Origin: Candidatus Peregrinibacteria bacterium
GTDB taxonomy: Bacteria > Patescibacteriota > Gracilibacteria > UBA1369 > LOWO2-01-FULL-3
DNA length: 46,968 bases
NCBI GenBank assembly: GCA_016186245.1
Contig: JACPLZ010000011.1
Coordinates: 1-46,968 of the forward strand
Direction: 5' to 3'
The position numbers and the translations under genes were made by a program. The notes beneath the pieces are model-generated. The model did not search any database. It worked only from the letters and a program-made list of their open reading frames with translations, and had not been told where the DNA came from. Shown here piece after piece: positions 1-33,711 of this stretch (position 1 is its first letter; each line of letters opens with the position of its first letter).

Positions 1-104
1 TGTCATCCAACCGTGTCATCCAACCGTGTCATCCAACCGTGTCATCCAACCGTGTCATCCAACCGTGTCATCCAACCGTGTCATCCAACCGTGTCATCCA
101 ACCA
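1..104. repeat. 13-bp tandem repeat TGTCATCCAACCG, 8 copies, running off the left window edge
   Basis: Units start at 1, 14, 27, 40, 53, 66, 79 and 92. Seven are identical and the last ends in A instead of G. The core TGTCATCC is the reverse complement of the GGATGACA core of the array at 27916-28248. Confidence 0.95.
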
Positions 105-131
105 TGTCATCCCGAACTTGTTTCGGGATCT
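105..131. repeat. Hairpin module TGTC-ATCCCGAA-CTTGT-TTCGGGAT-CTC, same family as the modules at 28012 and 28178
   Basis: Perfect 8-bp stem (109-116 pairs with 122-129) with the 5-nt loop CTTGT. It sits directly 3' of the minus-strand stop codon at 133-135. Flanks TGTC and CTCT match the 28012 and 28178 copies. Confidence 0.8.
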
Positions 132-2885: not shown

Positions 2886-3415
2886 ATTTTATTTAAAGCG
2901 TCATACATAATAATCCCATAACATACCGAAACATTCAAAGAATTTGCCCTGCCAAGCATCGGTAACTCCACGGCCATGTCTGCCATGGCCATTACTTCAT
3001 CGGATACCCCATTAACCTCATGGCCAAACACAAAACATACAGGATACCCATACGCAGCTTTTGAATATTCAACGGAGTTATTGGCCAATTCCACGACCGC
3101 GATTTTTACACCCTCTTTTTTAAGCTTTTTTAAAACTTCTACGGCGCTTTCATTATATTCCCACGGAACCAACTCCTCTGCGCCAAGGGCTGTTTTGGAA
3201 ATTTCCCTGCGTGGCGGACAGCCTGTAATACCGCAAAGATACAGTTTTTTCAGCAATACCGCATCGGACGTTCTGAAAATCGACCCCACATTATATAAAC
3301 TTCTCACATTATCAAGCAGGGCAAAAATCGGATTTCTTTTTTTCTTCCTTACTTTTGCCGCGCTTGGCTTTTTTTTGAGAATTTCTTTATGACTCCGTTT
3401 CTTCATCCCTGGCAT
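2882..3415 (-). CDS. SpoU/TrmH-family RNA 2'-O-methyltransferase
   Basis: Motifs NVGSIFRTSDA, FVFGHEVNGVS and LGRANSLNVSVCYGIIMY match the three SpoU motifs. A basic N-terminal extension is present. An alternative ATG lies at 3406. Confidence 0.85.
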   Translation of the reverse strand: MPGMKKRSHKEILKKKPSAAKVRKKKRNPIFALLDNVRSLYNVGSIFRTSDAVLLKKLYLCGITGCPPRREISKTALGAEELVPWEYNESAVEVLKKLKKEGVKIAVVELANNSVEYSKAAYGYPVCFVFGHEVNGVSDEVMAMADMAVELPMLGRANSLNVSVCYGIIMYDALNKI

Positions 3416-5525
3416 TTATAAACGTCAAAGTACGATTAATCAAATCCTGTAATTCCTGTTCTGTAATGGGATCTTCGGGTCTGAAAAATTCATCATCATC
3501 TACAATGCCATTTTCCACGCCAAAATTAATATAGCGCGGATACCACCACATATGGCTGATTTTACTGTTTACATCAACAAAATAGGATTTTTGACTAGTC
3601 AGATTTTCTTCCGATCCCAAATCTCTTATCAGCTCAAAACGATACCTTGGAAACACCAGATCATTTGCGCCAAAAATAATCTTTAGCGCCTGGATTCTGG
3701 TAACTTGATCATCCGGTTTAAAAGGACTTCCATACTCACTCATATAACCGTTGACTATCCCAAGCAGGGTCGCCGTATTGACGGCTTCGTAGTAGGGATT
3801 TTCAGGCTGTACATCGGGATAAAGCACCAATGGACCCTCCAGATTTATTCCGTCGTATGATGACATTGCCATAAAATTAAACAGACAGAAATCAATATAA
3901 TCTTTGCATTGATCCAGGACATCAACTTTTTTCTTTTTCAGGTCAAACTGATCCAGAATTACCGTCAGGATTTCCCCCCTGGCCAAAACACTTCCTTGGC
4001 TATCCAAAACAGGTCTTTCATGGCCAAATATTTCATTGTTTCCGGGAAAAATAAATACTTTCCCGTTATTTACTGCAAATTTCCCTTCAGAATATCTTGA
4101 GCCTACAACAATATCCTGTACGCCATCATGATTAAAATCCATCACTGCGGCGCTATATCCAAACCAGTCATCTGCATTTTCACCGTGGATTAAAGAATGG
4201 ACATCTTTTTTACTGATACTGAATATTTTATCGTACCCGATAACATCTCCATACACGATATACACGTCGCCTGGAGCATCGCTGACCAATGTATTGATGC
4301 CGGGCGCCCCAACTATCACTTCATCCTTTTTATCTCCATTTATGTCGGAGAGAATCACACTGGCGCCGGGTATGGCCTCATCATTTGCATCATTGATTAT
4401 CGCATCGGGAACAAATGGAGAATTTTTTTTGGAAAGGAATCTTTCTCCGCCGAAATAAATTTTAATCATCGCGTCTTTTCGGTCTCCGGTATAAGGAAAA
4501 GAACTGATAGCCATATCATCTATCCCATCGCCGTTTATATCGCCGGTGTCCAGGTCAAACCCGAACCATTGTCTGTTTTTATCTCCTTCAAGCGTTATCG
4601 AAGCAATATCAACAATCCTCGGAAAAAGTTTTTTGCCGCTGTACATATACATTCTGCCGGCCTGCTCGTTTTTGCCAATTGTGGAAGAATATGCTCCCAT
4701 GAGCACATCATTTTTTGTGTCCCCATCTATATCCGCAACGCCTATCGATGCCCCAAAACGCTCCCCTGGTTTATTTCCCCTGAAAAGGACATTTTGATCT
4801 TCACTAATCCCGCGTATGGATCCATAATACGCGCTTACATTGCCGGATTTTGGATAATTAATGGAATCGGAAAAAGGCGAACTGACAAGCAAATCATCGG
4901 TGCTGTCACTGTCAATATCGCCTGTCGCAAGTGAATATCCAAAACCATCTCCATCCCTGAAACCTTTCAAAATTATGTCCGCCCTATTTAATGAAAAATC
5001 AAAATCCGTCTGGATATTTTTAAAAGCCTCCGGTGGGCGGCCATTCATTATATACACTTTTCCGGTGTGATTTCCCTCAAATGAAGCCTTAAATGCTCCA
5101 ATAGCAAAATCTTCAAATCCATCACGATTAAAATCACCGGTAGCCAGGGATGTCCCCAATTGATCTCCCCCGCTTTCTCCAAAAAAACTGATGTCATGAT
5201 AGTCGCTGCTCCCTTCCACGATGGAATTACGGCCGAATATCAATTGTACCATTCCACTCCATTGGCGATTGTCGTAAGTGGCAAAAGGAGAAGAAACAAT
5301 TAAATCATCCAAACCATCATTATTAAAATCTCCGCTGACAATTTCCGCTCCAAACTGTCCGCCAGGATATGTCCCTGCAAATTCGATTTTATCAACGGAA
5401 AGAGCTGTATCAAGCTCGTGGACCATTTTTAACGCAAAGACGCTGTTAAGCGGAAAGAATAAGGCAAAAACACTTAAACAAAAACAGAGAATTGCTTTGA
5501 AATGAGGATTCAACATCCAGCCCAT
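3387..5525 (-). CDS. Secreted FG-GAP/VCBS-repeat protein with a C-terminal SLH-like domain
   Basis: Repeated FG..x..GDxNxDGxDD units (for example FGYSLATGDIDSDSTDDLLVSSP and FGFDLDTGDINGDGIDDMAISS). The C-terminal part (YPDVQPENPYYEAVNTATLLGIVNGY...FKPDDQVTRIQALKII) resembles an SLH domain. The ORF track begins at 5657, only 5 bp from the divergent start at 5663. The ATG at 5525 (MGWMLNPHFKAILCFCLSVFALFFPLNSVFA) gives a normal signal peptide. Confidence 0.85.
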   Translation of the reverse strand: MGWMLNPHFKAILCFCLSVFALFFPLNSVFALKMVHELDTALSVDKIEFAGTYPGGQFGAEIVSGDFNNDGLDDLIVSSPFATYDNRQWSGMVQLIFGRNSIVEGSSDYHDISFFGESGGDQLGTSLATGDFNRDGFEDFAIGAFKASFEGNHTGKVYIMNGRPPEAFKNIQTDFDFSLNRADIILKGFRDGDGFGYSLATGDIDSDSTDDLLVSSPFSDSINYPKSGNVSAYYGSIRGISEDQNVLFRGNKPGERFGASIGVADIDGDTKNDVLMGAYSSTIGKNEQAGRMYMYSGKKLFPRIVDIASITLEGDKNRQWFGFDLDTGDINGDGIDDMAISSFPYTGDRKDAMIKIYFGGERFLSKKNSPFVPDAIINDANDEAIPGASVILSDINGDKKDEVIVGAPGINTLVSDAPGDVYIVYGDVIGYDKIFSISKKDVHSLIHGENADDWFGYSAAVMDFNHDGVQDIVVGSRYSEGKFAVNNGKVFIFPGNNEIFGHERPVLDSQGSVLARGEILTVILDQFDLKKKKVDVLDQCKDYIDFCLFNFMAMSSYDGINLEGPLVLYPDVQPENPYYEAVNTATLLGIVNGYMSEYGSPFKPDDQVTRIQALKIIFGANDLVFPRYRFELIRDLGSEENLTSQKSYFVDVNSKISHMWWYPRYINFGVENGIVDDDEFFRPEDPITEQELQDLINRTLTFINARDEETES

Positions 5526-5572
5526 TATGAGTACTGCAATTATTGAAGTAAAGATTTTATAAACGGCGCCGC

Positions 5573-5963
5573 TAGACACGAGTAGACAATTAAAGTACAA
5601 TCGCGCCGAATTTGTCCACTCTCTGTCTATACACTGTCTATAGACATTACTAGACATAAAATATGCAAGTAGACAACGCTCAAAAACAGTACAATTTAAG
5701 TCGTGAAGCGGCTAGTAAACTGCTTAAAGTCTCAATGCGGACACTGGACAGGTATTTGGGTGGCAAAAAACTGTCTAGTCAACTAGTCAACGGTAGAATA
5801 TGGCTCAATAAAGAGGAAATAGATTCTTTATTGCATGATAAAAATCGTGCGGTGGTAGTAGACAAAGTAGACATGTCTACATCCAAAATGTCTATAGGCG
5901 TCCACATGGACAATGTAGACAATATGGACAGCCCGGAGCAGGACGCTGTCGACATCCTGTCTA
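5573..5963. repeat. Cluster of 14 TAGACA/TGTCTA hexamers, including two perfect palindromes
   Basis: TAGACA at 5573, 5583, 5641, 5651, 5670, 5859, 5868 and 5916. TGTCTA at 5624, 5635, 5772, 5874, 5889 and 5958. Palindromes are TGTCTATAGACA (5635-5646, intergenic) and GTAGACATGTCTAC (5867-5880, inside the CDS). The exact 13-mer CTGTCTAGTCAAC occurs at 5771 and 5957. Confidence 0.85.
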
Positions 5964-6322
5964 GTCAACCGCGAAAAATCAGCCAGCAAAGCGGCAGCGG
6001 CAATGCTTATAAAAAACTTTTTGAAGAACTGCGTGATGAGCTTCGCGAGAAACAGGAACGTCTGGAAATTGCCAATTATCGCGTCGGTCAGCTCGAGGCT
6101 CAAGTCCGAAATAGCATCCCCATGCTTGAATATCATCGCGAAAATTTTGAAAAGCAGCGGGTGCAGCAGGAGCTTTCCGGTAAGCTTGAGGAGTCCACAA
6201 GCCTGATCAAACAGCTATATTTAAAAATAAAATATGAAAGCTTCGGCAAAAAGTTGTTTTTGATTATTCTGTTGGGCGTACTGGCGTTACAGCCATTGTG
6301 GCTTTTGCTAAGGGACATCTGA
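5663..6322 (+). CDS. Excisionase/MerR-type HTH protein with a coiled coil and a C-terminal transmembrane anchor
   Basis: N-terminus YNLSREAASKLLKVSMRTLDRYLGGKKLSSQLVNGRIWLNKEEIDSLL fits the HTH_17/excisionase pattern. The middle part is heptad-like (LRDELREKQERLEIANYRVGQLEAQVR). The C-terminus is hydrophobic (LFLIILLGVLALQPLWLLL). Confidence 0.75.
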   Translation: MQVDNAQKQYNLSREAASKLLKVSMRTLDRYLGGKKLSSQLVNGRIWLNKEEIDSLLHDKNRAVVVDKVDMSTSKMSIGVHMDNVDNMDSPEQDAVDILSSQPRKISQQSGSGNAYKKLFEELRDELREKQERLEIANYRVGQLEAQVRNSIPMLEYHRENFEKQRVQQELSGKLEESTSLIKQLYLKIKYESFGKKLFLIILLGVLALQPLWLLLRDI

Positions 6323-12302: not shown

Positions 12303-14942
12303 TTATTCGCTCACCCCGTACTCTTCAAACTTCCTCGTCTTTTCAATATCAAGAAATTTCATCTGCTCTTTTTTGAAAGCAAGCTCCACATGTCCAACAG
12401 GGCCATTTCGATGCTTGCGGATATACACATCCGTAACACCTTTTTTTTCGGTATCTTCCTCATAATAATCTTCACGATAAATCATCAGCACCACGTCGCT
12501 GTCTTGTTCAATCGCACCTGAGTTATGCGACACAATATTATTTGCTAAAAAGCAAGATTCTTGTGGAACAGTCATGTCGTAAACCTCCTCTTCACCGGCA
12601 GCCTCAATTTTCACAATTTTATCCCAAAATAAATTATTATTACATTCCAGCTCTAAATCATGATCTGCAAGCCAAAAAGCGTAATTAAACACCAAATTTC
12701 GTGAAGGAGAAAAATTAAAATGGGCAGAGCCACAATAAGAAACTTCCCTTAACTCTGCCATTTGTCTAGCCGTTAAACCTACTCTTTCCATAGATTTTTT
12801 TATCTTAGTAAATATCTGTTGCGGCAAAGTATCAATATCTGTATTTGGAATAACGCCTTCCAGGGCTTTGCTCAATTTCACTGCTTGTGTTTTTCTTGGG
12901 CCAAAAGATCCGACATGGTTCAGAAACTTTTTTAAATCTTTTGCGCCATAAATAGTCACCATATAATTTGGCTTATATTCCCCTTTACGAACACGATATA
13001 TTCTTGCAACTATTCCAAATCTCAACAGCAGCGTCATTACATCAAAAGCTAAACCCTGGCTGTTTGTTGAGTAATGAATAACATGACTACATTTGCTGTT
13101 TCCTTTTCTTGTAAAAATAGTCCCATCGGTAGCCCAAAGGTGACGAAGCAGGGTTGCTATTTTTTGATTGCTTAGCTTAAAAGCCGCCACCGGAATACGT
13201 TTCTGATGGGATCGTTGCCCAAATATTTCCAATTCTCTAAACCATTTGTTGACACCGTCATAATGCCATCGATTTCCATTTCCGCTCAATAAAAGCTGAT
13301 GCCAGCTCCTTCTTCCCTTATATCTTGTTACTTTCATGCCAAATTCTTTCTCAGCTGCCTTTTTTACAAAAGCGCTGTTTTCCTCAGAGCTCGTGGTATA
13401 TCGCATCGGAGCATTATTCAAATAGCTTCCGTCACCGATCATTTGTCCCAGCAGGCCAATCCGATAATCAGACCAATCCTCCGCGCCATCCGGTTCTGGC
13501 AACTCATGAGCAATGGCTATCCTCTCTCCCTTTTTCATCATTCCAATTTTTTTCCATCCATCTCCTGTCATCAGTCGATGATTTGCAGTTGCAGTAACCT
13601 CCAGGCCTGTTGCCAATTTCACTTTAAATACAGGCTTTGTCCCGACCTTCCAAACTTTTTCACTTTTTGATTTAATTAATTTCCCTTGAGTATTAACTGC
13701 CAAAACTTCCGGTTCTTTATCCACCAATTCTTTAACCGGCACTCTGGTTCCATCTGCCAAAGTTATCAAGGTATCGCCAACAAGACATTCCCTCAAATCC
13801 GACAATTGCGGGATTTTACTCGGCCTTAATTCCACCGCTCTCGACAGCTGTGAGAGGGCGATAATGGGAATAGAAAGATCGCGCGCCAGAGCCTTTAACG
13901 ACCGCGAAATTTCACTGATTTCCTGCACGCGGTTTACCTGGAAAGAACCCGACATTCCTGTACTCATAAGCTGCAAATAATCGACCACAAGCAAATCCAG
14001 GCCGCTCTCCATTTTTAATCGTCTGGCTTTTGCTTTTAATTCCGCAATCGAATTTCCAATCGAATCATCGATAAAAATTTTCATGGAATTTAATTCATCC
14101 ATCACCGCTCCGATTTTACCAAAGTCCTCATCGGTCAATTGCCCGGTCCTCATCTTCCACGAATCTACGGAAAGCAGACTACAAAACATGCGCTCCACAA
14201 GCTGCTCCTTGGACATTTCCAGAGAAATAATAGCCACGGCATGCCCCTTTTTGGCTACATTCTGGGCTATATTCAATGCGAGAGCGGTTTTGCCCATTGA
14301 CGGCCTTGCGGCCAAAACAACAAGATCTGATGGCTGCAGGCCTGACAAAATATTATCCAGTGATTTAAATCCTGTCGGAATTCCACGATATTTTTCCTTA
14401 ACATCAGGATCATGGAGGTCGGAAATTTTTTCATAGGTTTTATTGAGGACATCTTTGATATGGACAAATCGATCCGCCATAAACGTCTGGGAGACGCCAA
14501 AAATCGTTTTTTCCGCATTGTCGATCAGATTTTCAACATCTTCATTTTCCATGTATCCAAAGCCCTTAATCGTATCTCCTGCAATGATCAGTTTCCTCAA
14601 AATCGCCTTTTGCTTAACAATCGTCGCGTATTGAAAAATGTGGGTCGCGGTAGGGACTTCATTGGCCAATTGGGCGAGATAGGAAGCTCCGCCGATCAAT
14701 TTCAACTCACCGCGGTCTTCGAGAATATTAACAAGCGTGACAAGATCGATAGGGGAGCGCTTGTCGTACAAATCGAGAATTGCCTTATAAATAAGCCGAT
14801 GGGCATCATGATAAAAGTCCTCCGGTTTGAGAAAATCGGAAATCTTGACGATCGCGTCTTTATCGATCAGCACGGAACCTATAGCCGATCTCTCGGCCTC
14901 CAGACTGTGCGGCGGCACATGTGAATCCATCAAATTGGCCAT
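12303..14942 (-). CDS. dnaB: Replicative DNA helicase DnaB, intein-containing precursor (879 aa; 457-aa extein)
   Basis: Walker A (ARPSMGKTALAL), LVVVDYLQLM, and SQLSR...SDLRE|C...HN|SGAIEQDSD. The insertion interrupts the conserved DLRESGxIEQDAD motif. Confidence 0.95.
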   Translation of the reverse strand: MANLMDSHVPPHSLEAERSAIGSVLIDKDAIVKISDFLKPEDFYHDAHRLIYKAILDLYDKRSPIDLVTLVNILEDRGELKLIGGASYLAQLANEVPTATHIFQYATIVKQKAILRKLIIAGDTIKGFGYMENEDVENLIDNAEKTIFGVSQTFMADRFVHIKDVLNKTYEKISDLHDPDVKEKYRGIPTGFKSLDNILSGLQPSDLVVLAARPSMGKTALALNIAQNVAKKGHAVAIISLEMSKEQLVERMFCSLLSVDSWKMRTGQLTDEDFGKIGAVMDELNSMKIFIDDSIGNSIAELKAKARRLKMESGLDLLVVDYLQLMSTGMSGSFQVNRVQEISEISRSLKALARDLSIPIIALSQLSRAVELRPSKIPQLSDLRECLVGDTLITLADGTRVPVKELVDKEPEVLAVNTQGKLIKSKSEKVWKVGTKPVFKVKLATGLEVTATANHRLMTGDGWKKIGMMKKGERIAIAHELPEPDGAEDWSDYRIGLLGQMIGDGSYLNNAPMRYTTSSEENSAFVKKAAEKEFGMKVTRYKGRRSWHQLLLSGNGNRWHYDGVNKWFRELEIFGQRSHQKRIPVAAFKLSNQKIATLLRHLWATDGTIFTRKGNSKCSHVIHYSTNSQGLAFDVMTLLLRFGIVARIYRVRKGEYKPNYMVTIYGAKDLKKFLNHVGSFGPRKTQAVKLSKALEGVIPNTDIDTLPQQIFTKIKKSMERVGLTARQMAELREVSYCGSAHFNFSPSRNLVFNYAFWLADHDLELECNNNLFWDKIVKIEAAGEEEVYDMTVPQESCFLANNIVSHNSGAIEQDSDVVLMIYREDYYEEDTEKKGVTDVYIRKHRNGPVGHVELAFKKEQMKFLDIEKTRKFEEYGVSE
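12522..13787 (-). mobile_element. Intein (422 aa) with a LAGLIDADG homing-endonuclease domain, inserted in DnaB
   Basis: Begins with Cys386 (CLVGDTLITLADG, codon 13785-13787). Block B is TANH. Two LAGLIDADG-type motifs are present (LLGQMIGDGSY and LRHLWATDGTI). It ends in VSHN (Asn807, codon 12522-12524), followed by the +1 Ser. Confidence 0.9.
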
Positions 14943-20562: not shown

Positions 20563-23319
20563 TTAAATCAGATTCTTTTCTATTTCCTCGCACTGTATCG
20601 GTGTCAGATCATCGCCGGTATCATCATAATGCATTAAATTTCCCGGCTGATCGGCACCCTGATCATGCGCATGCGCATGGGGCTGGTCTTTATTTACCCC
20701 TTTACTTAACTGATGTGCCAGCTCATGTGCCAGTGTCCTATTGTCATGATCGGTGCTTTCGTCAACAGTCACACCATCAGTGGGATCATTCCATGACGCG
20801 CCCATGGTGTCATCATCCAGTTTGGGCACGTAATAAACCGGAATGCAGTTGCCGGACGGCGGATGCCTGTTAACCATTTCATCGAGTTCCGAATTCAGAT
20901 CAACATCTCCATCTCCGTTTGTATCCACGTCATTAAAATCCTGCGCCGTAAGATGCTCTATCGCATGTATGGCAATATCCAAAAAGAAATTGCAATCGCA
21001 CTGCTGCGCGTTTTTGGAAAAAATCTGCATCGCCGTAACGACATCGGTGCTCACGGTAACATCTGTGGCATCGCTGCCTTCAAAAATAAACACATCTACG
21101 CAGACGGATTTCCACGGTTTTACCTTGTACCACCACTTCCAGAATTCCTCGAAAATATCCCACATTTCTTCATCCGATTTATTCTCGCCGTCTGTATTTT
21201 TTATAACCGCATCCTGCACGTAAATAACTCCATCTCCGATTGAAGCAGCATTAAACAGCAGATCTCCCGCACGAATGGTCTCCGGCACGGTTGAAGCGGT
21301 ATTTTTTATAATTCCCTGAATGGAAATCATGCCATTTGCAGAATTCACACCCTTTATAAGTGGCGTGCCAAAGGCATCTCCCGGTATGGGATCCTCAATA
21401 TCCACAAACTGCAGCAGTTTATTTGATGGCATAAGATTGAAAGAAAATTCTCCCAGCTTTCCTTTATTTTTTGGAAAATAAATATACATCGGAACGGAAA
21501 ATTGCCCGGATTCTTCTTCCACCGCCTTTGGGAAATTCAGTTGTATCGGCAAAAACGCAACCTGGACCGTTTCTCCCAGGCTTATTCCGGAAGAAGTTGT
21601 TATCGTTACGTCGGAAACTCCCCAATCGCTTGCCGTCAGCTCAATTGTAAAGATACCGTTTTCATTATGTGAAATTTCAACCGATCCCATCGTAGCAACT
21701 GCCGAAAGATTATTATTCACCGAAGAATACGGCAGAACATTCCCATATTTATCCACTCCGGCAACTTCGATGATTGCGCGGTCAGGTCTGTCATTTTCAT
21801 AATCATAATTTACATTTTTCACTTTTACATCAGCAAATCGCGCAGGCTCGACATACACCATCGCCGCATTTTTGACATTCGTTGTTTCATCCGTAACCGA
21901 TAAAGTGAAATACCCGGATTTATCCGAATCAAAAACGGTTGAAAAACCGCCGTCTGCATTTGCGGTAAGATTCACATATTTTACAAAATCCCGTCCCGTG
22001 GAAATTTTCACCTGCGGCAGGATTGTTGGCGAAACCGGATCCCCATATTCATTTACAAAATCAACATCTACATATGTGCTGCCTCCCGCTGTAAAATTTT
22101 CCAAACCGCTTATCTCAATGTGATCGATATTGCCGCCATTTCCGGAAAAAACAGTGTCATTTGGACACTCCTGGGAAATTATATTGTTTGAAAGAATGTT
22201 TTCATAGCAGACCGTACAGCCGTTATCCCGTCCGATGCAATATGGCTCATCGGTTGAAATTGGTGTCTCCGATCCAACGGTGATTTTTACGTGATCCACA
22301 TAGCAGAGTATTTCTTCGTAATCGGAAGTGTCGGAAATACCTTCCGGCAGGTACCAGCAGGCAACATCAAACTGCTCCCGCATTAAATCGTCAAAATAGA
22401 CCATATTGTTTTTTTGCTCTTCTTTATGGCAAAACATCAGGCCAAAGCCATCAGCGTCATATCCGGTAATATCAATACCGCTCAAAACCTCTTCCACCCT
22501 TTCCCAGAAATCACCTTCATCGGAAAAATAGCAGAAGTTTTGGTCAAAATAAGTTTCATCAATCGGATTAAAATCACTTGTCTCGTAAAATGCTCCCGTA
22601 TTTCCAAACGGCCCGCCAGGCCCAAACAATCCTCCCGGCGCCAACGCCCCGTCATGGGGAATTTCATAATATTCAAACAATTCATCAGTCATATCCGCAT
22701 CAAAAGATTCAATATTTAAAACATCAATTTGTTTATTTCGATAAATCATTTCCGCGATATCCCCGCGATCCATTATCGCTCCGGCATCATTTTCGGCCAT
22801 AATTCCGCGCTTGGAGGCTAACTCAAAATATGGCTGATACCACTGTTCATTTTCTTCTTTTTCTCTCAAACTCCAGCCCTCCAATTCTCCAAGAATTTTC
22901 AGTGATTCCACTTGGTTTATAATTTGGTCCGGTTTAAATGTGCCATCAGGATAGCCGTTTACAATGCCTTCGGATTTCGCCTGGCATACGTAAGTTGAAT
23001 ACCACGCATCCGGCGGCACGTCCGGAAAACATTTTTCATAATTTTGCCCGGTTGCAACTCCGGTTCCTTCAAAAAGAAGTTTAAGAAATTCCGCACGGTT
23101 TATATTGTTTGAAGGACGATATTCGCGCAGACCATCGTTACTTTGATAGCCTTCTACAACGCCGGTGTTATAGAGAAAATAAATCGCGTCATAATTTTGA
23201 TTTTCCAGTTCAACATCGTTAAACATTGAATTTCTAACCTGCCCATAACCGCCTGCTGTCGGCACAGACATCGTCAAAAAGGCTAACGCTACAATAAAAA
23301 ACAGAATATATTTTTTCAT
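20563..23319 (-). CDS. Large secreted protein: N-terminal SLH domains, central beta-rich region, C-terminal HExxH metallopeptidase-like motif
   Basis: Signal peptide MKKYILFFIVALAFLTMSVPTAGG (ATG at 23319; the ORF track starts at 23349). SLH-like units FNDVELENQNYDAIYFLYNTGVVEGY and FPDVPPDAWYSTYVCQAKSEGIVNGYPDGTFKP. Ca-binding-like DTNGDGDVDLNSELD. C-terminal TLAHELAHQL...NLMHY. Confidence 0.75.
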   Translation of the reverse strand: MKKYILFFIVALAFLTMSVPTAGGYGQVRNSMFNDVELENQNYDAIYFLYNTGVVEGYQSNDGLREYRPSNNINRAEFLKLLFEGTGVATGQNYEKCFPDVPPDAWYSTYVCQAKSEGIVNGYPDGTFKPDQIINQVESLKILGELEGWSLREKEENEQWYQPYFELASKRGIMAENDAGAIMDRGDIAEMIYRNKQIDVLNIESFDADMTDELFEYYEIPHDGALAPGGLFGPGGPFGNTGAFYETSDFNPIDETYFDQNFCYFSDEGDFWERVEEVLSGIDITGYDADGFGLMFCHKEEQKNNMVYFDDLMREQFDVACWYLPEGISDTSDYEEILCYVDHVKITVGSETPISTDEPYCIGRDNGCTVCYENILSNNIISQECPNDTVFSGNGGNIDHIEISGLENFTAGGSTYVDVDFVNEYGDPVSPTILPQVKISTGRDFVKYVNLTANADGGFSTVFDSDKSGYFTLSVTDETTNVKNAAMVYVEPARFADVKVKNVNYDYENDRPDRAIIEVAGVDKYGNVLPYSSVNNNLSAVATMGSVEISHNENGIFTIELTASDWGVSDVTITTSSGISLGETVQVAFLPIQLNFPKAVEEESGQFSVPMYIYFPKNKGKLGEFSFNLMPSNKLLQFVDIEDPIPGDAFGTPLIKGVNSANGMISIQGIIKNTASTVPETIRAGDLLFNAASIGDGVIYVQDAVIKNTDGENKSDEEMWDIFEEFWKWWYKVKPWKSVCVDVFIFEGSDATDVTVSTDVVTAMQIFSKNAQQCDCNFFLDIAIHAIEHLTAQDFNDVDTNGDGDVDLNSELDEMVNRHPPSGNCIPVYYVPKLDDDTMGASWNDPTDGVTVDESTDHDNRTLAHELAHQLSKGVNKDQPHAHAHDQGADQPGNLMHYDDTGDDLTPIQCEEIEKNLI

Positions 23320-23355
23320 TTGAATGATGTTAGATTGTCCGGAGCTCATTCTGAC

Positions 23356-27915: not shown

Positions 27916-28248
27916 ATCCTGAAACAAGTTCAGGATGACATTTTTTGTGTCATGCCGGTTCAGGATGACATTTTTTGTGTCATGCCGGTTCAGGATGACA
28001 TTTTTTGTGTCATGCCGAACTTGTTTCGGCATCTCTTGAGGTTGATCGCTACGATAGATCCTGAAACAAGTTCAGGATGACACGATTAGAGTTCAGAATG
28101 ACACGATTAGAGTTCAGAATGACACGATTAGAGTTCAGGATGACACGATTAAAGTTCAGGATGACATTTTTTGTGTCATGCCGAACTTGTTTCGGCATCT
28201 CTTGAGGTTGATTGCTCCGATAGATCCTGAAACAAGTTCAGGATGACA
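27916..28248. repeat. Composite hairpin and tandem-repeat array built on the core GGATGACA
   Basis: Hairpin H1 (ATCCTGAA-ACAAG-TTCAGGAT) at 27916, 28058 and 28224. Three 30-bp units at 27927-28016. Hairpin H3 (ATGCCGAA-CTTGT-TTCGGCAT) at 28012 and 28178. Four 21-bp units at 28083-28166. A 94-bp segment is duplicated (27989-28082 and 28155-28248, 2 mismatches). Confidence 0.95.
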
Positions 28249-29567: not shown

Positions 29568-32171
29568 ATGCAGCTGATCATAGACAGGAAAATTTTTGAT
29601 GAATATCACGACCTCAAAATAGGAGCGATAATAATCCGCGGATTTAACAACAGCAAAAGAAGCTCCGCAATCGAGAGTCTGCTTCGCGGCGTTTGCGCCC
29701 AGAGGCGGCGTGAATTCCAGGATAAAGACATCCACGAAAATCCGATGATAAAAGTATGGGATCAGACTTATGGACGGTTTGGAGTCAATCCAAAAAAATT
29801 TCCGCCGTCAATTTCAGCTCTTTTAAAAAGAATCCGGACCGGAAAATATCTGTCCCACATCAACCCTTTGGTAGACCTTTATAATTATTTTTCGCTGAAA
29901 TATCTGCTGCCAATCGGAGGTGAAGACATTGATTGGCTTTGCGGAGATTTGCGTCTGGCTTTCACAAAAGGGGGAGAGGCATTCCGTCCGATTGGTTCAA
30001 TAGAAGTGGAAACAGCCAAAGAAGGCGAAATAGCCTACATGGATAAGGGCGGCATAACCAGCCAATACTGGAATTATCACGAATGTGAAAGAACGAAATT
30101 CACGGAACGGACGACAAATGCCGTCATCTTGATTGAGGATTTGAGCAAAATGCACATGGATGAATTCGGCCGCATTCTGGATGACTTGCAGAATAATATT
30201 TTGAAATACATTGGAGGACAAATTGAATCTTATCTTTTGAATGAAGAAAATCCTGCCATTGAGCTCGGCGCTCAAGGCAGGACTCATGCCGATGATGCAA
30301 AAATCCCACAGCAGGAAAGAGCCCACTTTTTGGAGCAGGAGTTGCGGGCGGAACGGGCAGTCTCTCCGGCTTCCGCTTCTTCCAATTCAAAAAAAAAACC
30401 TTGGAACAGCTCAGGCTCTTCTAAGCAGCTTATTGTAGAGGATAAAACATCTATTAGGAGTAAAATCGGCAGTCTTTTTGTCAAAGCTTTGGGGCAAATC
30501 GCACCGGGATTAAAACCGGAAATCCGTCTGGAAAATCCAGCTTCCGTCGAACACGGAGATTATTCCTCGAACATCGCCATGCAGATCGCAAAATTTTTAA
30601 AAAAATCACCACGCGACATCGCGCAGGAAATTATCAGGAATATTACCAAAAACACTTTGATTGAAAAAGTTACAGTAGAAGGGCCCGGATTCATCAATAT
30701 TTTTATTTCTGAAAAAATTCTGAATAAAGAAATAAATTCCATCATAAAAAAAGATGGCAGTTATGGCTCATCGAAAATCGGCCACGATAAAACCGTCATT
30801 ATTGAATACAGCCAGCCGAATATCGCCAAACCTCTTGGCGTCCACCATCTGCTTTCCACGATTATAGGGCAGAGCATCTATAATCTTTTAAAGCTCCTTG
30901 GCTTTAAAGCGGTCAGCATTAACCATATCGGCGATTGGGGCACGCAGTTTGGCAAACTTATTCATGCGTATAAACAATGGGGGGATAAAAAAACAGTCGA
31001 AAAAAATCCGATCAGCGAGCTCCTTAAATTGTATGTAAGATTTCACAACGAAGCCGAAAAAGACCAATCTCTTGAGGACAAAGGACGCGAGGAATTTAAA
31101 AAATTTGAGGAGGGCGACAGCGGGAGCAGGAAACTATGGCAATGGTTTGTGGACGAAAGCATGAAGGAAGTGGAAAAAACATACGGCATGCTTGGCGGAA
31201 TTCATTTTGATTATGTCCAGGGGGAAAGTTTTTACGAAGATAAAATGGGGGCGATTTTCGAGGAAGGCAAGAAAAGAGGAATATTTGTGAAAGGGGAGGA
31301 AGGCGCTTATGTAAGCGTTTTTGACGATCCTGATATCCCAACTGTGCCGGTGCGGAAAAAGGATGGCGCCACTTTATATATAACCCGTGATTTTGCAGCT
31401 TTAAAATATCGTATTGATACATGGCATCCTGAAAAAATTCTTTACGTTGTGGACGTTGCGCAAATTCTGCACTTTAAACAGATATTCGCCACCGCCAGAA
31501 AATTTCCATGGTACGGCGGCGAGGGCGAACACGTAGTGTTTGGACGCATGCAGTTTAAGGATGGAAAAATGAGCACCCGGAAAGGCAATATTATTGCATT
31601 GGATGAAGTGCTTTCGGAAGCCATAAATCGTGCATTGAAAATCGTGTGGGGGAAAAATCCCGACCTTAAAAATAAGGACGAAATTGCGCGCCTCATAGGC
31701 ATCGGCGCAGTAAAATACAATATCCTCTCCCAAAACCGTATTTCCGATATTACGTTTGATTGGGACAAAATGCTTTCACTGGAAGGAAATAGCGCTCCGT
31801 ATTTACAGTACACCTATGCGCGCGCACGGAGCATTTTAAGGAAATCGGAGGAGAAAAATCTGCGGGAATCAGTCGCGGATGATGATTCTGCTCAGGGGTT
31901 CCCTCAGACCAAAATCAGAAATCTAACAGTGCATTTAAGCAAGTTTTCCGAATATATCGTTTTAGCCGCATCGGAATATAAGCCGAATATTATCGCAAAT
32001 TATCTTTATGATTTGGCGCAGAAATTCAATTCTTTTTACAATTCCGTGCCGGTGCTGAGAGCTGCCTCCGCAGCAGATAGAAAACAGCGTCTCAAAATAG
32101 TCAAAGCATCTTCTATAGTCATGAAAAACGGCCTCGGATTATTGGGAATCGAGACTGTTGAAGAAATGTAA
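29568..32171 (+). CDS. argS: Arginyl-tRNA synthetase with an N-terminal B3/4 (PheRS-beta editing-type) domain fusion (867 aa)
   Basis: Residues ~1-225 (MQLIIDRKIFDEYHDLKIGAIIIRGFNN...INPLVDLYNYFSLKYLLPIGGEDID) match the stand-alone B3/4-domain protein pattern. A Ser/Lys-rich linker follows (SPASASSNSKKKPWNSSGSS). The ArgS part covers residues ~300-867: Arg_tRNA_synt_N region (VEHGDYSSNIAMQIA), HIGH-region (PNIAKPLGVHHL), GKMSTRKG, and the DALR anticodon-binding end. Confidence 0.9.
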   Translation: MQLIIDRKIFDEYHDLKIGAIIIRGFNNSKRSSAIESLLRGVCAQRRREFQDKDIHENPMIKVWDQTYGRFGVNPKKFPPSISALLKRIRTGKYLSHINPLVDLYNYFSLKYLLPIGGEDIDWLCGDLRLAFTKGGEAFRPIGSIEVETAKEGEIAYMDKGGITSQYWNYHECERTKFTERTTNAVILIEDLSKMHMDEFGRILDDLQNNILKYIGGQIESYLLNEENPAIELGAQGRTHADDAKIPQQERAHFLEQELRAERAVSPASASSNSKKKPWNSSGSSKQLIVEDKTSIRSKIGSLFVKALGQIAPGLKPEIRLENPASVEHGDYSSNIAMQIAKFLKKSPRDIAQEIIRNITKNTLIEKVTVEGPGFINIFISEKILNKEINSIIKKDGSYGSSKIGHDKTVIIEYSQPNIAKPLGVHHLLSTIIGQSIYNLLKLLGFKAVSINHIGDWGTQFGKLIHAYKQWGDKKTVEKNPISELLKLYVRFHNEAEKDQSLEDKGREEFKKFEEGDSGSRKLWQWFVDESMKEVEKTYGMLGGIHFDYVQGESFYEDKMGAIFEEGKKRGIFVKGEEGAYVSVFDDPDIPTVPVRKKDGATLYITRDFAALKYRIDTWHPEKILYVVDVAQILHFKQIFATARKFPWYGGEGEHVVFGRMQFKDGKMSTRKGNIIALDEVLSEAINRALKIVWGKNPDLKNKDEIARLIGIGAVKYNILSQNRISDITFDWDKMLSLEGNSAPYLQYTYARARSILRKSEEKNLRESVADDDSAQGFPQTKIRNLTVHLSKFSEYIVLAASEYKPNIIANYLYDLAQKFNSFYNSVPVLRAASAADRKQRLKIVKASSIVMKNGLGLLGIETVEEM

Positions 32172-32376: not shown

Positions 32377-33711
32377 TTAAAATCCGTCCGGATCCCCGAT
32401 TTCAGCCGGATCGGCAAAAATACGGTAAAATACGGTTACCGCCATCGCTCTTGAGAACGGGACCTTGGCGTCAAAAGCCCCGTCTTTATCATTCATGAAT
32501 TTTAAATAACTCATTACCCTTATATACGGCAGCGCCCAATCGGAATATTCATCGCTTGGTATAAAATTAAATAATGCCTCGTCTTCAGCGTCAGATATGA
32601 CCACGCTGTCTTTCGTAAAACCCACCACATTGGCAATCATTTTAGCGGCCTGCTCGCGGGTTACCGGATCGTCGCAGCCAAATTTGCCGCCGCCGACACC
32701 GCTCCAGTAACCGGCATCAACGCCCGTATAGACGTAAGGCGCCGCCCAATGATCGGCAGGCACATCGGTAAAACCGCTTACATGGCTTCCATCAACGTCA
32801 ACTTCATGAGCTTCCAAAAGCATTTTGGAAAACTCGCAGCGTGTAGCGCCATCCGTTGGCCGGAAATTGTCATCATACTTGACCCAGCCTTTGGCGGCGG
32901 CATACCGTACAGGATCGTAAAACCATTCTCCTGCGGGAACATCAAGAAAGCTGTTATTATATTCAAAAAAGCCATCACTGTATGAATCAGATGATTTTGC
33001 CAGATCAAAATAACCAGGATCCATATTCACATAGCCGGTGGTATCGGTAAGCATCATTCCAAAAAGATCATCGGTTACTTTCCCATCCTCAGGCATATAC
33101 AAAATCGCATGTTTGGTTTTATCGTAATACGCCTGGACTATCAGCTCATTTGTAACCGAATGATAGACCTTACCTGTGGCAGGATCGACAAGCGGATAAA
33201 TATATCCATATTCCAGCGGAAGCTTATTGTCATAAACCGTTATTTCCCCAACATCTTTTTGCTCGGCGCATACTTCGGTGGTTGTAGTTAAACAGTGATA
33301 AATCGAACGATCGGTAAAATTGATCCTTGTGCCGTAGGCCTTTAAACTGCTCGTTGAATTACTGTTTTTTTCCAGACAGTAGACATCGCCGCTCGGCCAT
33401 CCTTCAACGCCTATGGCTCCTTCAGGAATAGTCAAACCGGGTACCCCATAATCTCCCGCAGGTACGGGAGTCCCGCCGGACGATGATACATTGCCAGTTT
33501 TCGTTCCATAATCACCATATGTGCCGCTATAGTCTGAACCATTATCGGTATAAAATGAGGGAGTCCAGGTGGAACTTTCATAATCTACATCCCAGCTTGG
33601 ATCATATGATCCTGAGTAATAATCATAACCGTCAAGAAACGCAAAAGCTGCCTGGGAAAAAATAAAAATCCCAAACAAGCAAAGAATAGAGACCTTCAAA
33701 AATTTTTTCAT
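32377..33711 (-). CDS. Secreted protein with C-terminal SLH domains
   Basis: Signal peptide MKKFLKVSILCLFGIFIFSQAAFA. SLH-like units FLDVPAGEWFYDPVRYAAAKGWV...FRPTDGATRCEFSKML and FTDVPADHWAAPYVYTGVDAGYWSG...VTREQAAKMI. Confidence 0.8.
   Translation of the reverse strand: MKKFLKVSILCLFGIFIFSQAAFAFLDGYDYYSGSYDPSWDVDYESSTWTPSFYTDNGSDYSGTYGDYGTKTGNVSSSGGTPVPAGDYGVPGLTIPEGAIGVEGWPSGDVYCLEKNSNSTSSLKAYGTRINFTDRSIYHCLTTTTEVCAEQKDVGEITVYDNKLPLEYGYIYPLVDPATGKVYHSVTNELIVQAYYDKTKHAILYMPEDGKVTDDLFGMMLTDTTGYVNMDPGYFDLAKSSDSYSDGFFEYNNSFLDVPAGEWFYDPVRYAAAKGWVKYDDNFRPTDGATRCEFSKMLLEAHEVDVDGSHVSGFTDVPADHWAAPYVYTGVDAGYWSGVGGGKFGCDDPVTREQAAKMIANVVGFTKDSVVISDAEDEALFNFIPSDEYSDWALPYIRVMSYLKFMNDKDGAFDAKVPFSRAMAVTVFYRIFADPAEIGDPDGF

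Follow-up and report, generated by a model that had tools for sequence, protein, structure and literature searches.

RocS of Streptococcus pneumoniae and Par of the staphylococcal plasmid pSK1 are built from an N-terminal MerR-type winged helix-turn-helix (wHTH) domain, an oligomerising coiled coil and a C-terminal membrane-binding element, and both are single-protein systems without a nucleoside triphosphatase (NTPase) partner, and each is proposed to act as a membrane tether for the DNA it targets; Par recognises specific repeats in its plasmid sequence (PMC11500499). In RacA of Bacillus subtilis, a disordered linker that is sensitive to proteolysis joins a MerR-like wHTH to a coiled coil; the protein anchors DNA to the cell envelope and recognises centromere-like repeats in clusters, the ram sites, each a GC-rich palindrome of 14 bp close to the origin of the chromosome (PMC4914108). 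BldC of Streptomyces binds a variable number of direct repeats about one helical turn apart and forms cooperative head-to-tail multimers (PMC5859096). The locus described here lies on a stretch of 46,968 bp of Candidatus Peregrinibacteria DNA (contig JACPLZ010000011.1; hereafter the window, meaning the whole stretch that was analysed). It comprises a gene for a predicted tail-anchored wHTH protein and a dense array of the hexamer TAGACA (TGTCTA in the other orientation) that extends from the promoter of this gene into its coding sequence. In our view the array is probably the protein's own cooperative operator, by which the gene would repress itself, with tethering of the locus to the membrane as a consequence.

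Counted in both orientations, TAGACA occurs 24 times in the window, and 14 of these copies fall within positions 5573 to 5963 (Table 1). An earlier first-pass annotation, made by a model from the DNA letters, had reported this count in 391 bp against about 0.2 copies expected, and both figures hold: a uniform composition predicts 0.19 copies and the background of the window 0.084, which gives a Poisson probability of 9e-27 for 14 or more. The 10 copies in the rest of the window are at chance level (the shuffle mean for the whole window is 10), no second TAGACA cluster was found in the 47 kb, and nowhere in the window does a rival hexamer become as dense over 391 bp, the closest contenders being true tandem repeats. 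The two palindromes and the duplicated 13-mer that the first-pass annotation had picked out are present as well, and six one-base variants of the hexamer (TGGACA, TGTCCA and TGTCGACA) are interspersed at 5613, 5745, 5907, 5925 and 5947/5949. Seven of the exact copies are intergenic or lie over the start codon and seven are within the coding sequence, where all share a single codon phase and read GTA-GAC-A (V-D) or (A/C)TG-TCT-A (M/L-S). The leader module TGTCYA-N5-TGTCTA-N5-TGTCTATAGACA-N4-TAGACA recurs in five other loci (L002, L001, L011, L013 and L016).

Orthologous genes carry clusters of their own, a point that the first-pass annotation had put forward for checking. Eighty loci were fetched from different species of the GTDB (protein identity 30-62%; labelled L001 and so forth), and in an unbiased count of all hexamers from -200 to +360 around the gene start, TAGACA came out top or tied for top in 54 of 79 orthologous Peregrinibacteria loci. 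At least five copies are present in 63 of these 79 loci and at least ten in 36 (median 9, maximum 28), with copy numbers between species running from 1 to 28. The array is thus conserved in about 80 species, and its pooled density of 15.8 copies per kb compares with 0.51 per kb in 606 kb of flanking DNA, a 31-fold enrichment; the related hexamers TCGACA, TGGACA and TTGACA are enriched 10-fold, 7.5-fold and 5-fold, respectively. The extended motif approximates W-V-T-[A>C>G]-G-A-C-A, with a T almost never preceding the T. Across the loci the sites form two blocks, from -125 to +10 and from +175 to +275, and the C-terminal half of the gene is nearly free of them (0.04 copies per locus). Composite sites, that is phased direct pairs or palindromes, were found once in about 524 kb of flanks from 81 genomes, against 0.65 expected; this sample amounts to about 1% of each genome. 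Secondary arrays adjoin the main one in some species, either in the 5' part of the divergent FG-GAP gene (L027, L037 and L044) or in long intergenic regions, as in L076.

The secondary arrays in the coding 5' region of the FG-GAP/SLH gene are themselves phased, occupy positions 3114-3252 in L027, 3040-3342 in L037 and 2569-2596 in L044, and lie 0.6-1.4 kb upstream of the HTH gene, so that the bound domain in species of this type may span more than 1 kb. A metagenome scan for three phased direct repeats (TAGACA-N4-5-TAGACA-N4-5-TAGACA) returned at least 120 matches, mostly unrelated satellites or tandem repeats; among the matches listed, a family member occurs only on L154, and the scan is uninformative on arrays elsewhere in these genomes. 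Non-satellite arrays of TAGACA/TGTCTA at 10-11 bp spacing also occur on unrelated metagenomic contigs (L188 325-569, L128 1065-1477 and L155 2559-2834) on which no family gene was detected, and these are probably iteron-like arrays of other elements.

The array is selected at the level of the DNA, since copies stand in non-coding sequence, since synonymous codons are chosen in favour of the motif and since the corresponding peptide is lost in clades whose sites lie upstream only. The 150 bp of non-coding DNA upstream of the gene hold 3.75 copies on average, with two or more in 65 of 81 loci. Within residues 1-125 of the protein, V-D is encoded by GTAGAC in 52% of cases as against 8% in flanking genes (Fisher P = 1e-43), and M-S by ATGTCT in 75% as against 25% elsewhere (P = 8e-16). 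Where the arrays are placed wholly upstream, as in L054, L061, L069, L074, L075 and others, the protein has a linker of similar length without any VD or MS motif, and across the family the number of intragenic sites follows the number of peptide motifs (Spearman rho = 0.78). The linker peptide conserved in the main clade, VDxVDMSTxxMSIDxxVDxVD, consists of the residues encoded by the hexamers, and its conservation is demonstrably the mark left by the DNA sites; the linker, for which disorder is predicted, would therefore tolerate being written by a DNA motif.

The converse, in which the cluster is a by-product of the protein sequence, either of a low-complexity V-D/M-S-T repeat in the linker or of a codon or dipeptide bias, would account for the conservation of that consensus in the main clade and for the single codon phase of the intragenic copies, but it retains hardly any probability at all. 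Half of the copies are non-coding, the synonymous shift toward the motif is six-fold, the peptide motif vanishes with the intragenic sites while the linker, predicted to be disordered, stays, and on these grounds a protein-sequence or codon-bias origin was rejected. The first-pass annotation had itself held that its cluster would lose its meaning if the hexamer were equally frequent throughout the genome, for instance through a bias toward Val-Asp; the 31-fold excess over the flanks and the sparing use of GTAGAC elsewhere say otherwise. The in-frame ATGTCTA sites (window 5870-5890) also create internal ATG codons, and the public gene calls P0122, P0126, P0129 and P0136 start at such an internal ATG (139-180 amino acids), thereby losing the wHTH; these shortened calls may be annotation artefacts, or they could correspond to an isoform without the DNA-binding domain.

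The arrangement of the sites follows the pitch of the DNA helix. Neighbours in the same orientation are spaced by 10-11 bp, and the spacing recurs at 22 and 33 bp; in non-coding DNA the '++' pairs number 47 at 10 bp and 27 at 11 bp, and the '--' pairs 46 at 11 bp. Inverted pairs fall into two spacing series, one of 6/17/27-28/38-39 bp and the other of 9/18-21/30-31/40-42/51-52 bp, with a period of about 10.5 bp, and abutting or overlapping palindromes such as TGTCTATAGACA, TGTCTAGACA and TAGACATGTCTA are common. Helical phasing of this kind is a typical signature of proteins that are arrayed cooperatively on one face of the DNA, and the tolerance of both orientations would fit monomeric DNA-binding domains on long flexible tethers.

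The array is moreover interwoven with the promoter of the gene. The succession of TAGACA-N4-TAGACA and a -10 element is conserved in close orthologues, and in 60 of 80 loci a -10-like hexamer follows a copy of TNGACA at a spacing of 16-18 bp, which in 53 of them is exactly 17 bp. A -10-like hexamer at 17 bp accompanies 54 of 279 plus-oriented upstream sites as against 4 of 213 minus-oriented ones. Because of this spacing and its strand specificity, one copy of the array appears in most species to serve also as the predicted -35 element from which the gene itself is transcribed. Loci of the main clade have a second copy in the promoter spacer and a leader filled with further copies. A distant clade with shorter proteins has 1-3 sites: its -35 element is an ordinary TTGCCA or TTGACA, the spacer holds a single site resembling TAGACA or TGGACA, and ATGTCTAC is found at the start codon. 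This distribution suggests that the large arrays of the main clades arose by amplification of a simple autoregulatory operator. Autoregulation, which the first-pass annotation had retained as its conservative alternative, is what the DNA most directly suggests, because a copy coincides with the predicted -35 in most species and because the 1-3 sites of the distant clade are set in an ordinary promoter. The divergent FG-GAP promoter, the boxes of which ('gtaaag' and 'cattatg') are conserved in orthologues, is clear of the array in this genome, where about 20 bp separate its -35 from the nearest site. The predicted -10 of this divergent promoter overlaps the first ATG of the FG-GAP gene and is located about 7 nt upstream of a second ATG (5517-5515, minus strand) that opens a signal-peptide-like sequence, which suggests that the FG-GAP mRNA is leaderless.

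The protein encoded by the gene is identical to a hypothetical protein of a Candidatus Peregrinibacteria metagenome-assembled genome (MAG), and its 450 database homologues, all of them unannotated and all in Peregrinibacteria-type MAGs, have no curated family. An AlphaFold2 model built from a 35-sequence family alignment predicts an N-terminal winged domain of beta-alpha-alpha-beta-beta-alpha topology (strand 10-13, helices 14-21 and 25-33, strands 39-42 and 45-49, helix 50-61), a disordered linker of about 45 residues (predicted local distance difference test score, pLDDT, below 50 over residues 67-110) and a single long helix from residue 113 to 218 (pLDDT 91-97). The recognition helix and wing are nearly invariant across the family. 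HTH_17 (PF12728) matches 34 of the 35 family members, with a best E of 2.5e-6, and MerR (PF00376) matches 21; the window protein alone is below the HTH_17 threshold (14.9 bits against a cutoff of 27), several homologues have a precomputed PF12728 match, and Pfam and NCBIfam searches with the single protein returned nothing beyond weak HTH matches. Foldseek against the PDB retrieved BldC-DNA (6ama/6amk), the Xis of mycobacteriophage Pukovnik (4j2n), RacA-DNA (5i44), GlnR, Tn916 Xis and the pSK1 Par-centromere complex (8csh). The best of these, BldC and Pukovnik Xis, superpose with a root-mean-square deviation of 1.2-1.3 A, a target-normalised TM-score of 0.74-0.76 and a probability of 1.00; since the entire protein served as query, the E-values are weak (0.015-0.2). 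By profile and by fold, the N-terminal domain belongs to the MerR/excisionase-type winged HTH superfamily.

The C-terminal module, helix plus transmembrane segment, is the most conserved part of the protein and is found only in this family, the most conserved stretch (KQERLEIANYRVGQLEAQ..S.P.LEYH) sitting in the long helix; searches of PDB sequences with the single protein and with the family profile yielded no relative of the protein, and none of this module. The transmembrane segment has a mean Kyte-Doolittle hydropathy of 2.6 over 19 residues (family median 2.60, minimum 1.99), is flanked by K/R and is followed by 1-6 residues in every family member, all of which identifies the predicted C-terminus as a transmembrane tail anchor and not an amphipathic helix. 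The excisionase-type HTH and the C-terminal membrane helix claimed by the first-pass annotation are therefore well founded, whereas of its coiled coil the long helix is predicted and oligomerisation is presumed.

Set beside the known systems, the protein has a wHTH of the same type as RocS and Par, followed by a predicted long helix (residues 113-218 of a single-chain AlphaFold2 model) for which a coiled coil is presumed. The repeats recognised by Par are situated just upstream of par. The protein is nevertheless not a member of the RocS/Par family: DUF536 gives no match to the window protein at E <= 1 and does not figure in the 25 families to which the 35 members most often match, a predicted hydrophobic tail anchor takes the place of the MinD-like amphipathic helix, and beyond the wHTH fold the sequences show no similarity. 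The family described here is also chromosomal and confined to the Peregrinibacteria lineage, and its sites extend into the coding sequence of the gene itself. RacA has some 25 ram sites dispersed over hundreds of kilobases, also binds DNA non-specifically and reaches the membrane indirectly via DivIVA, whereas here the motif is different, the sites form one compact array at the gene itself with no sign of an origin within -5.6 to +41 kb, and the predicted transmembrane anchor is direct and would make an interaction with DivIVA unnecessary. The best structural matches, BldC and Pukovnik Xis, belong to a group that also includes the phage and ICE excisionases lambda Xis, Tn916 Xis and RdfS and that forms cooperative filaments on repeats spaced by one helical turn (PMC5859096), and the direct-repeat spacing of 10-11 bp and the variable copy number (1-28) at the present locus match those of BldC. 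However, the proteins of this group are small, soluble, stand-alone wHTH domains (about 68 amino acids in BldC) without coiled coil or membrane anchor, as against 219 amino acids here; BldC controls a large regulon and Xis proteins act in recombination, and the array here also uses inverted arrangements.

Binding sites that lie at the gene of their own binder are familiar from plasmid and chromosome partition. In the ParR-parC and omega-heptad systems, the promoter of the binder's gene is surrounded by short phased repeats that are used for autoregulation as well as for partition; with Par, too, one array is both centromere and operator, and parB/spo0J contains parS sites. Those binders, however, have ribbon-helix-helix folds or a ParB HTH with a CTPase, and the motor partner (ParM or ParA) is absent here; the protein has no ParB-family match in Pfam or NCBIfam, and the motif is unrelated to the 16-bp palindromic parS. 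ToxR, CadC and TcpP are membrane-fixed DNA-binding transcription factors that capture their target promoter at the membrane, but they combine an OmpR-type wHTH with a periplasmic sensor, whereas the wHTH here is of MerR/Xis type and the 1-6 residues after the membrane segment leave no external sensor. The protein is therefore not of the BldC family, nor a ParB, nor of the ToxR type.

The most likely binder of the array is the protein encoded by the same gene, whose modelled wHTH is of a kind that binds repeat arrays, which would support an autorepressive operator. Several membrane-anchored molecules would dock their flexibly tethered wHTH domains on hexamers one helical turn apart, in either orientation, and the long helix, presumably oligomerising, would together with the flexible linkers make binding cooperative. 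The resulting nucleoprotein complex would extend from the promoter across the leader and over the first third of the gene. Exclusion of RNA polymerase would be expected because one hexamer forms the predicted -35 and another lies in the spacer, and their occupancy would produce negative autoregulation. Since the binder is fixed in the membrane, the locus would be held there for as long as the protein occupies the array. Some observations weigh against this account. The promoters were assigned by consensus match alone, and the promoter rules of this organism may differ; 10 to 28 sites far exceed what autoregulation needs; and the invariant recognition helix provides no covariation that would tie this particular protein to TAGACA. 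A wider regulon or further arrays are possible beyond the 1% or so of each genome that was sampled, and small distal arrays are present at L075 7992-8050 and L054 8387-8436. These distal arrays (e.g. TGTCTAGACAccTGTCTActTGTCGA) are intergenic, about 4 kb from the gene and in two species of the upstream-only clade, and are possibly additional targets. Finally, the transcript folds unusually well (z = -4.8), so that an added role at the RNA level is possible.

The membrane connection may also be turned around, such that tethering is the selected function and autoregulation is secondary. The array would then be a centromere-like or anchoring site, and the protein, a single-component positioning system like RocS, pSK1 Par and RacA, would hold or segregate this region of the small chromosome of a Candidate Phyla Radiation (CPR) bacterium via the membrane. 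The first-pass annotation had offered such a nucleoid-anchoring module as one hypothesis, and the analogues do favour it: the combination of MerR-type wHTH, disordered linker, coiled coil and membrane anchor parallels theirs, RacA and Par are among the top structural matches, and as with Par and RocS no NTPase partner gene is found nearby. Arrays of up to 28 sites that reach as far as 1 kb into the neighbouring gene (L027 and L037) go beyond the needs of an operator, the array is apparently unique to this locus in the sampled DNA, and gene and position are kept across the whole lineage. We consider this possible but doubtful, as the locus shows no proximity to an origin (the GC skew runs monotonically, and dnaA, dnaN and parB are all absent from -5.6 to +41 kb), one short site would offer little grip on a chromosome of about 1 Mb, the distant clade gets by with 1-3 sites placed as in a simple operator, and the protein lacks the defining features of RocS and Par, DUF536 and a MinD-like amphipathic helix. 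A related and rather unlikely scenario makes gene and array a self-contained single-gene chromosome-membrane tether that loads in cis. The nascent N-terminal wHTH, its mRNA still on the template, would capture sites in its own promoter and early coding region, and the tail anchor, being made last, would insert and pin the locus to the membrane; an ancestral operator of 1-3 sites would have been amplified to 10-28 phased sites, even within the linker codons, turning an autoregulator into a fixed chromosomal anchor.

The remaining explanations dispense with the protein as a binder or with DNA binding altogether. It is improbable that a different trans-acting factor, a global regulator or something sigma-related, occupies the array and that the HTH gene is merely its target. 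TAGACA is one mismatch away from the -35 consensus TTGACA, which is itself enriched at the locus, and the comparison of motif and protein gave no usable covariation signal to link the two, TCGACA-rich arrays following higher genomic G+C rather than changes in the protein; yet the array tracks this one gene in about 80 species while flanking promoters are without it, and the encoded domain is of the structural class that binds phased repeat arrays. Background TAGACA is at chance and the hexamer is therefore not a general promoter element, and the occurrence of both orientations and of intragenic positions is inconsistent with a -35 role for most copies. Less probable again is a function in the RNA, whereby UAGACA and UGUCUA in the 5' leader and linker-coding region would pair into a long-range structure that controls translation or mRNA stability. 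The RNA from 5605 to 5965 does fold at -105.5 kcal/mol (z = -4.84 against shuffles), and an 11-nt perfect complement joins 5638-5648 to 5887-5897, but a strong fold is automatic for any motif present in both orientations. In 7 loci all 7-12 sites of the array precede the predicted -10 and would remain untranscribed, 190 sites in 53 loci are upstream of the predicted transcription start, the same-orientation periodicity of 10-11 bp has no rationale in RNA, and no match to Rfam was found. That the array is a replication origin with iterons, or an Xis-type recombination or attachment site of a mobile element, is highly unlikely. The iteron-like phasing, the Xis-like fold, the dnaB gene about 6 kb away and the variant TTGTCCAC, which resembles a DnaA box, would point in this direction; against them stand the missing GC-skew switch, the lack of any dnaA, dnaN, integrase or Rep gene nearby, the location in a core-genome block that is syntenic in about 60 species, and a membrane anchor and coiled coil unlike those of recombination directionality factors. 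Both the origin and the att site were rejected on gene context and GC skew.

The gene is surrounded by the divergent FG-GAP/SLH gene, two convergent DUF881 genes, murI, guaA, a tRNA synthetase gene of aspartyl/lysyl type and an intein-bearing dnaB. The neighbourhood is as the first-pass annotation had described it, with the DUF881 pair and murI next door, but the whole block is syntenic in about 60 species with convergent transcription; the linkage reflects this synteny and not a specific operon-like coupling, and in itself is no argument for a functional module. A search of the available literature on DUF881 returned no functional information. The DnaB helicase is split by an intein with a LAGLIDADG homing endonuclease (879 amino acids, window 12303-14942, minus strand), while the orthologue in L081 is free of the intein and has 457 amino acids. 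Further along, an arginyl-tRNA synthetase carries an N-terminal B3_4 domain fusion (867 amino acids, window 29568-32171, plus strand). Four large SLH-domain proteins are encoded in the window (3387-5526, 20563-23349, 32377-33711 and 33978-36899), which suggests an elaborate cell-surface layer in this CPR bacterium. A different repeat motif, GGATGACA / TGTCATCC, forms tandem arrays at two places in the window and may be another binding-site array: a TGTCATCCAACCG array of 13 bp x 8.6 lies at the contig end (window 1-112), and arrays of 30 bp x 3 and 21 bp x 4.7 (TTCAGGATGACA) occupy 27928-28017 and 28069-28166, between the Ig-like/fn3 and CNNM/CorC transporter genes.

Table 1. Sites, promoter elements and coding features at the locus of the tail-anchored wHTH gene (window coordinates)
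Feature	Position	Strand	Remarks
TAGACA/TGTCTA, exact copies (starts)	5573, 5583, 5624, 5635, 5641, 5651, 5670, 5772, 5859, 5868, 5874, 5889, 5916, 5958		
TAGACA copy 1, predicted -35 of HTH gene promoter	5573-5578	+	17 bp upstream of TACAAT
TAGACA copy 2	5583-5588	+	direct repeat 10 bp from copy 1; inside promoter spacer
Predicted -10 of HTH gene, TACAAT	5596-5601	+	TAAAAT, TACAAT, TAGAAT or TAATAT at same offset in orthologues
Leader block	5613-5656		TGTCCA 5613, TGTCTA 5624, palindrome TGTCTATAGACA 5635-5646, TAGACA 5651; neighbour spacings 11, 11, 6, 10 bp
12-bp palindrome TGTCTATAGACA	5635-5646		leader
Tail-anchored wHTH protein gene, 219 aa	5663-6322	+	public record HYW82_00740, hypothetical
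TAGACA copy over codons 3-4 (M-Q-V-D-N)	5670-5675	+	N-terminus M-x-V-D-N recurs in orthologues
Winged-HTH domain coding region, residues 5-61	5675-5845	+	contains TGGACA 5745, TGTCTA 5772; pLDDT 82-88
Duplicated 13-mer CTGTCTAGTCAAC	5771 and 5957		
Intragenic block	5859-5963		exact copies 5859, 5868, 5874, 5889, 5916, 5958; variants TGGACA 5907, 5925, TGTCGACA 5947; encodes linker residues 66-101
14-bp palindrome GTAGACATGTCTAC	5867-5880		intragenic block
Long alpha-helix coding region, residues 113-197, presumed coiled coil	5999-6253	+	no motif copies
C-terminal transmembrane segment LFLIILLGVLALQPLWLLL, residues 198-216	6254-6310	+	followed by 3 residues
Predicted divergent FG-GAP/SLH promoter	-35 TTTACT 5547-5552, -10 CATAAT 5525-5530	-	
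Divergent FG-GAP repeat/SLH-domain protein	3387-5526	-	upstream in 60 loci

The locus defines both a lineage-wide protein family, so far uncharacterised, and the DNA that it probably targets in CPR bacteria, in which chromosome organisation and regulation are almost unexplored, and the pair of protein and site is ready for biochemistry. It is a case of overlapping codes, as a binding-site array is written into the coding sequence of its presumed binder's own disordered linker, and it cautions against reading conserved linker motifs as protein function. The gene is also a candidate for a single-gene chromosome-membrane tether in CPR bacteria. Should tethering prove to be functional, it would extend the wHTH-coiled-coil-membrane class of positioning systems represented by RocS, Par and RacA to a member with a true transmembrane anchor and a single defined chromosomal site, and the question of how one DNA-binding protein positions DNA via the membrane would become more tractable.

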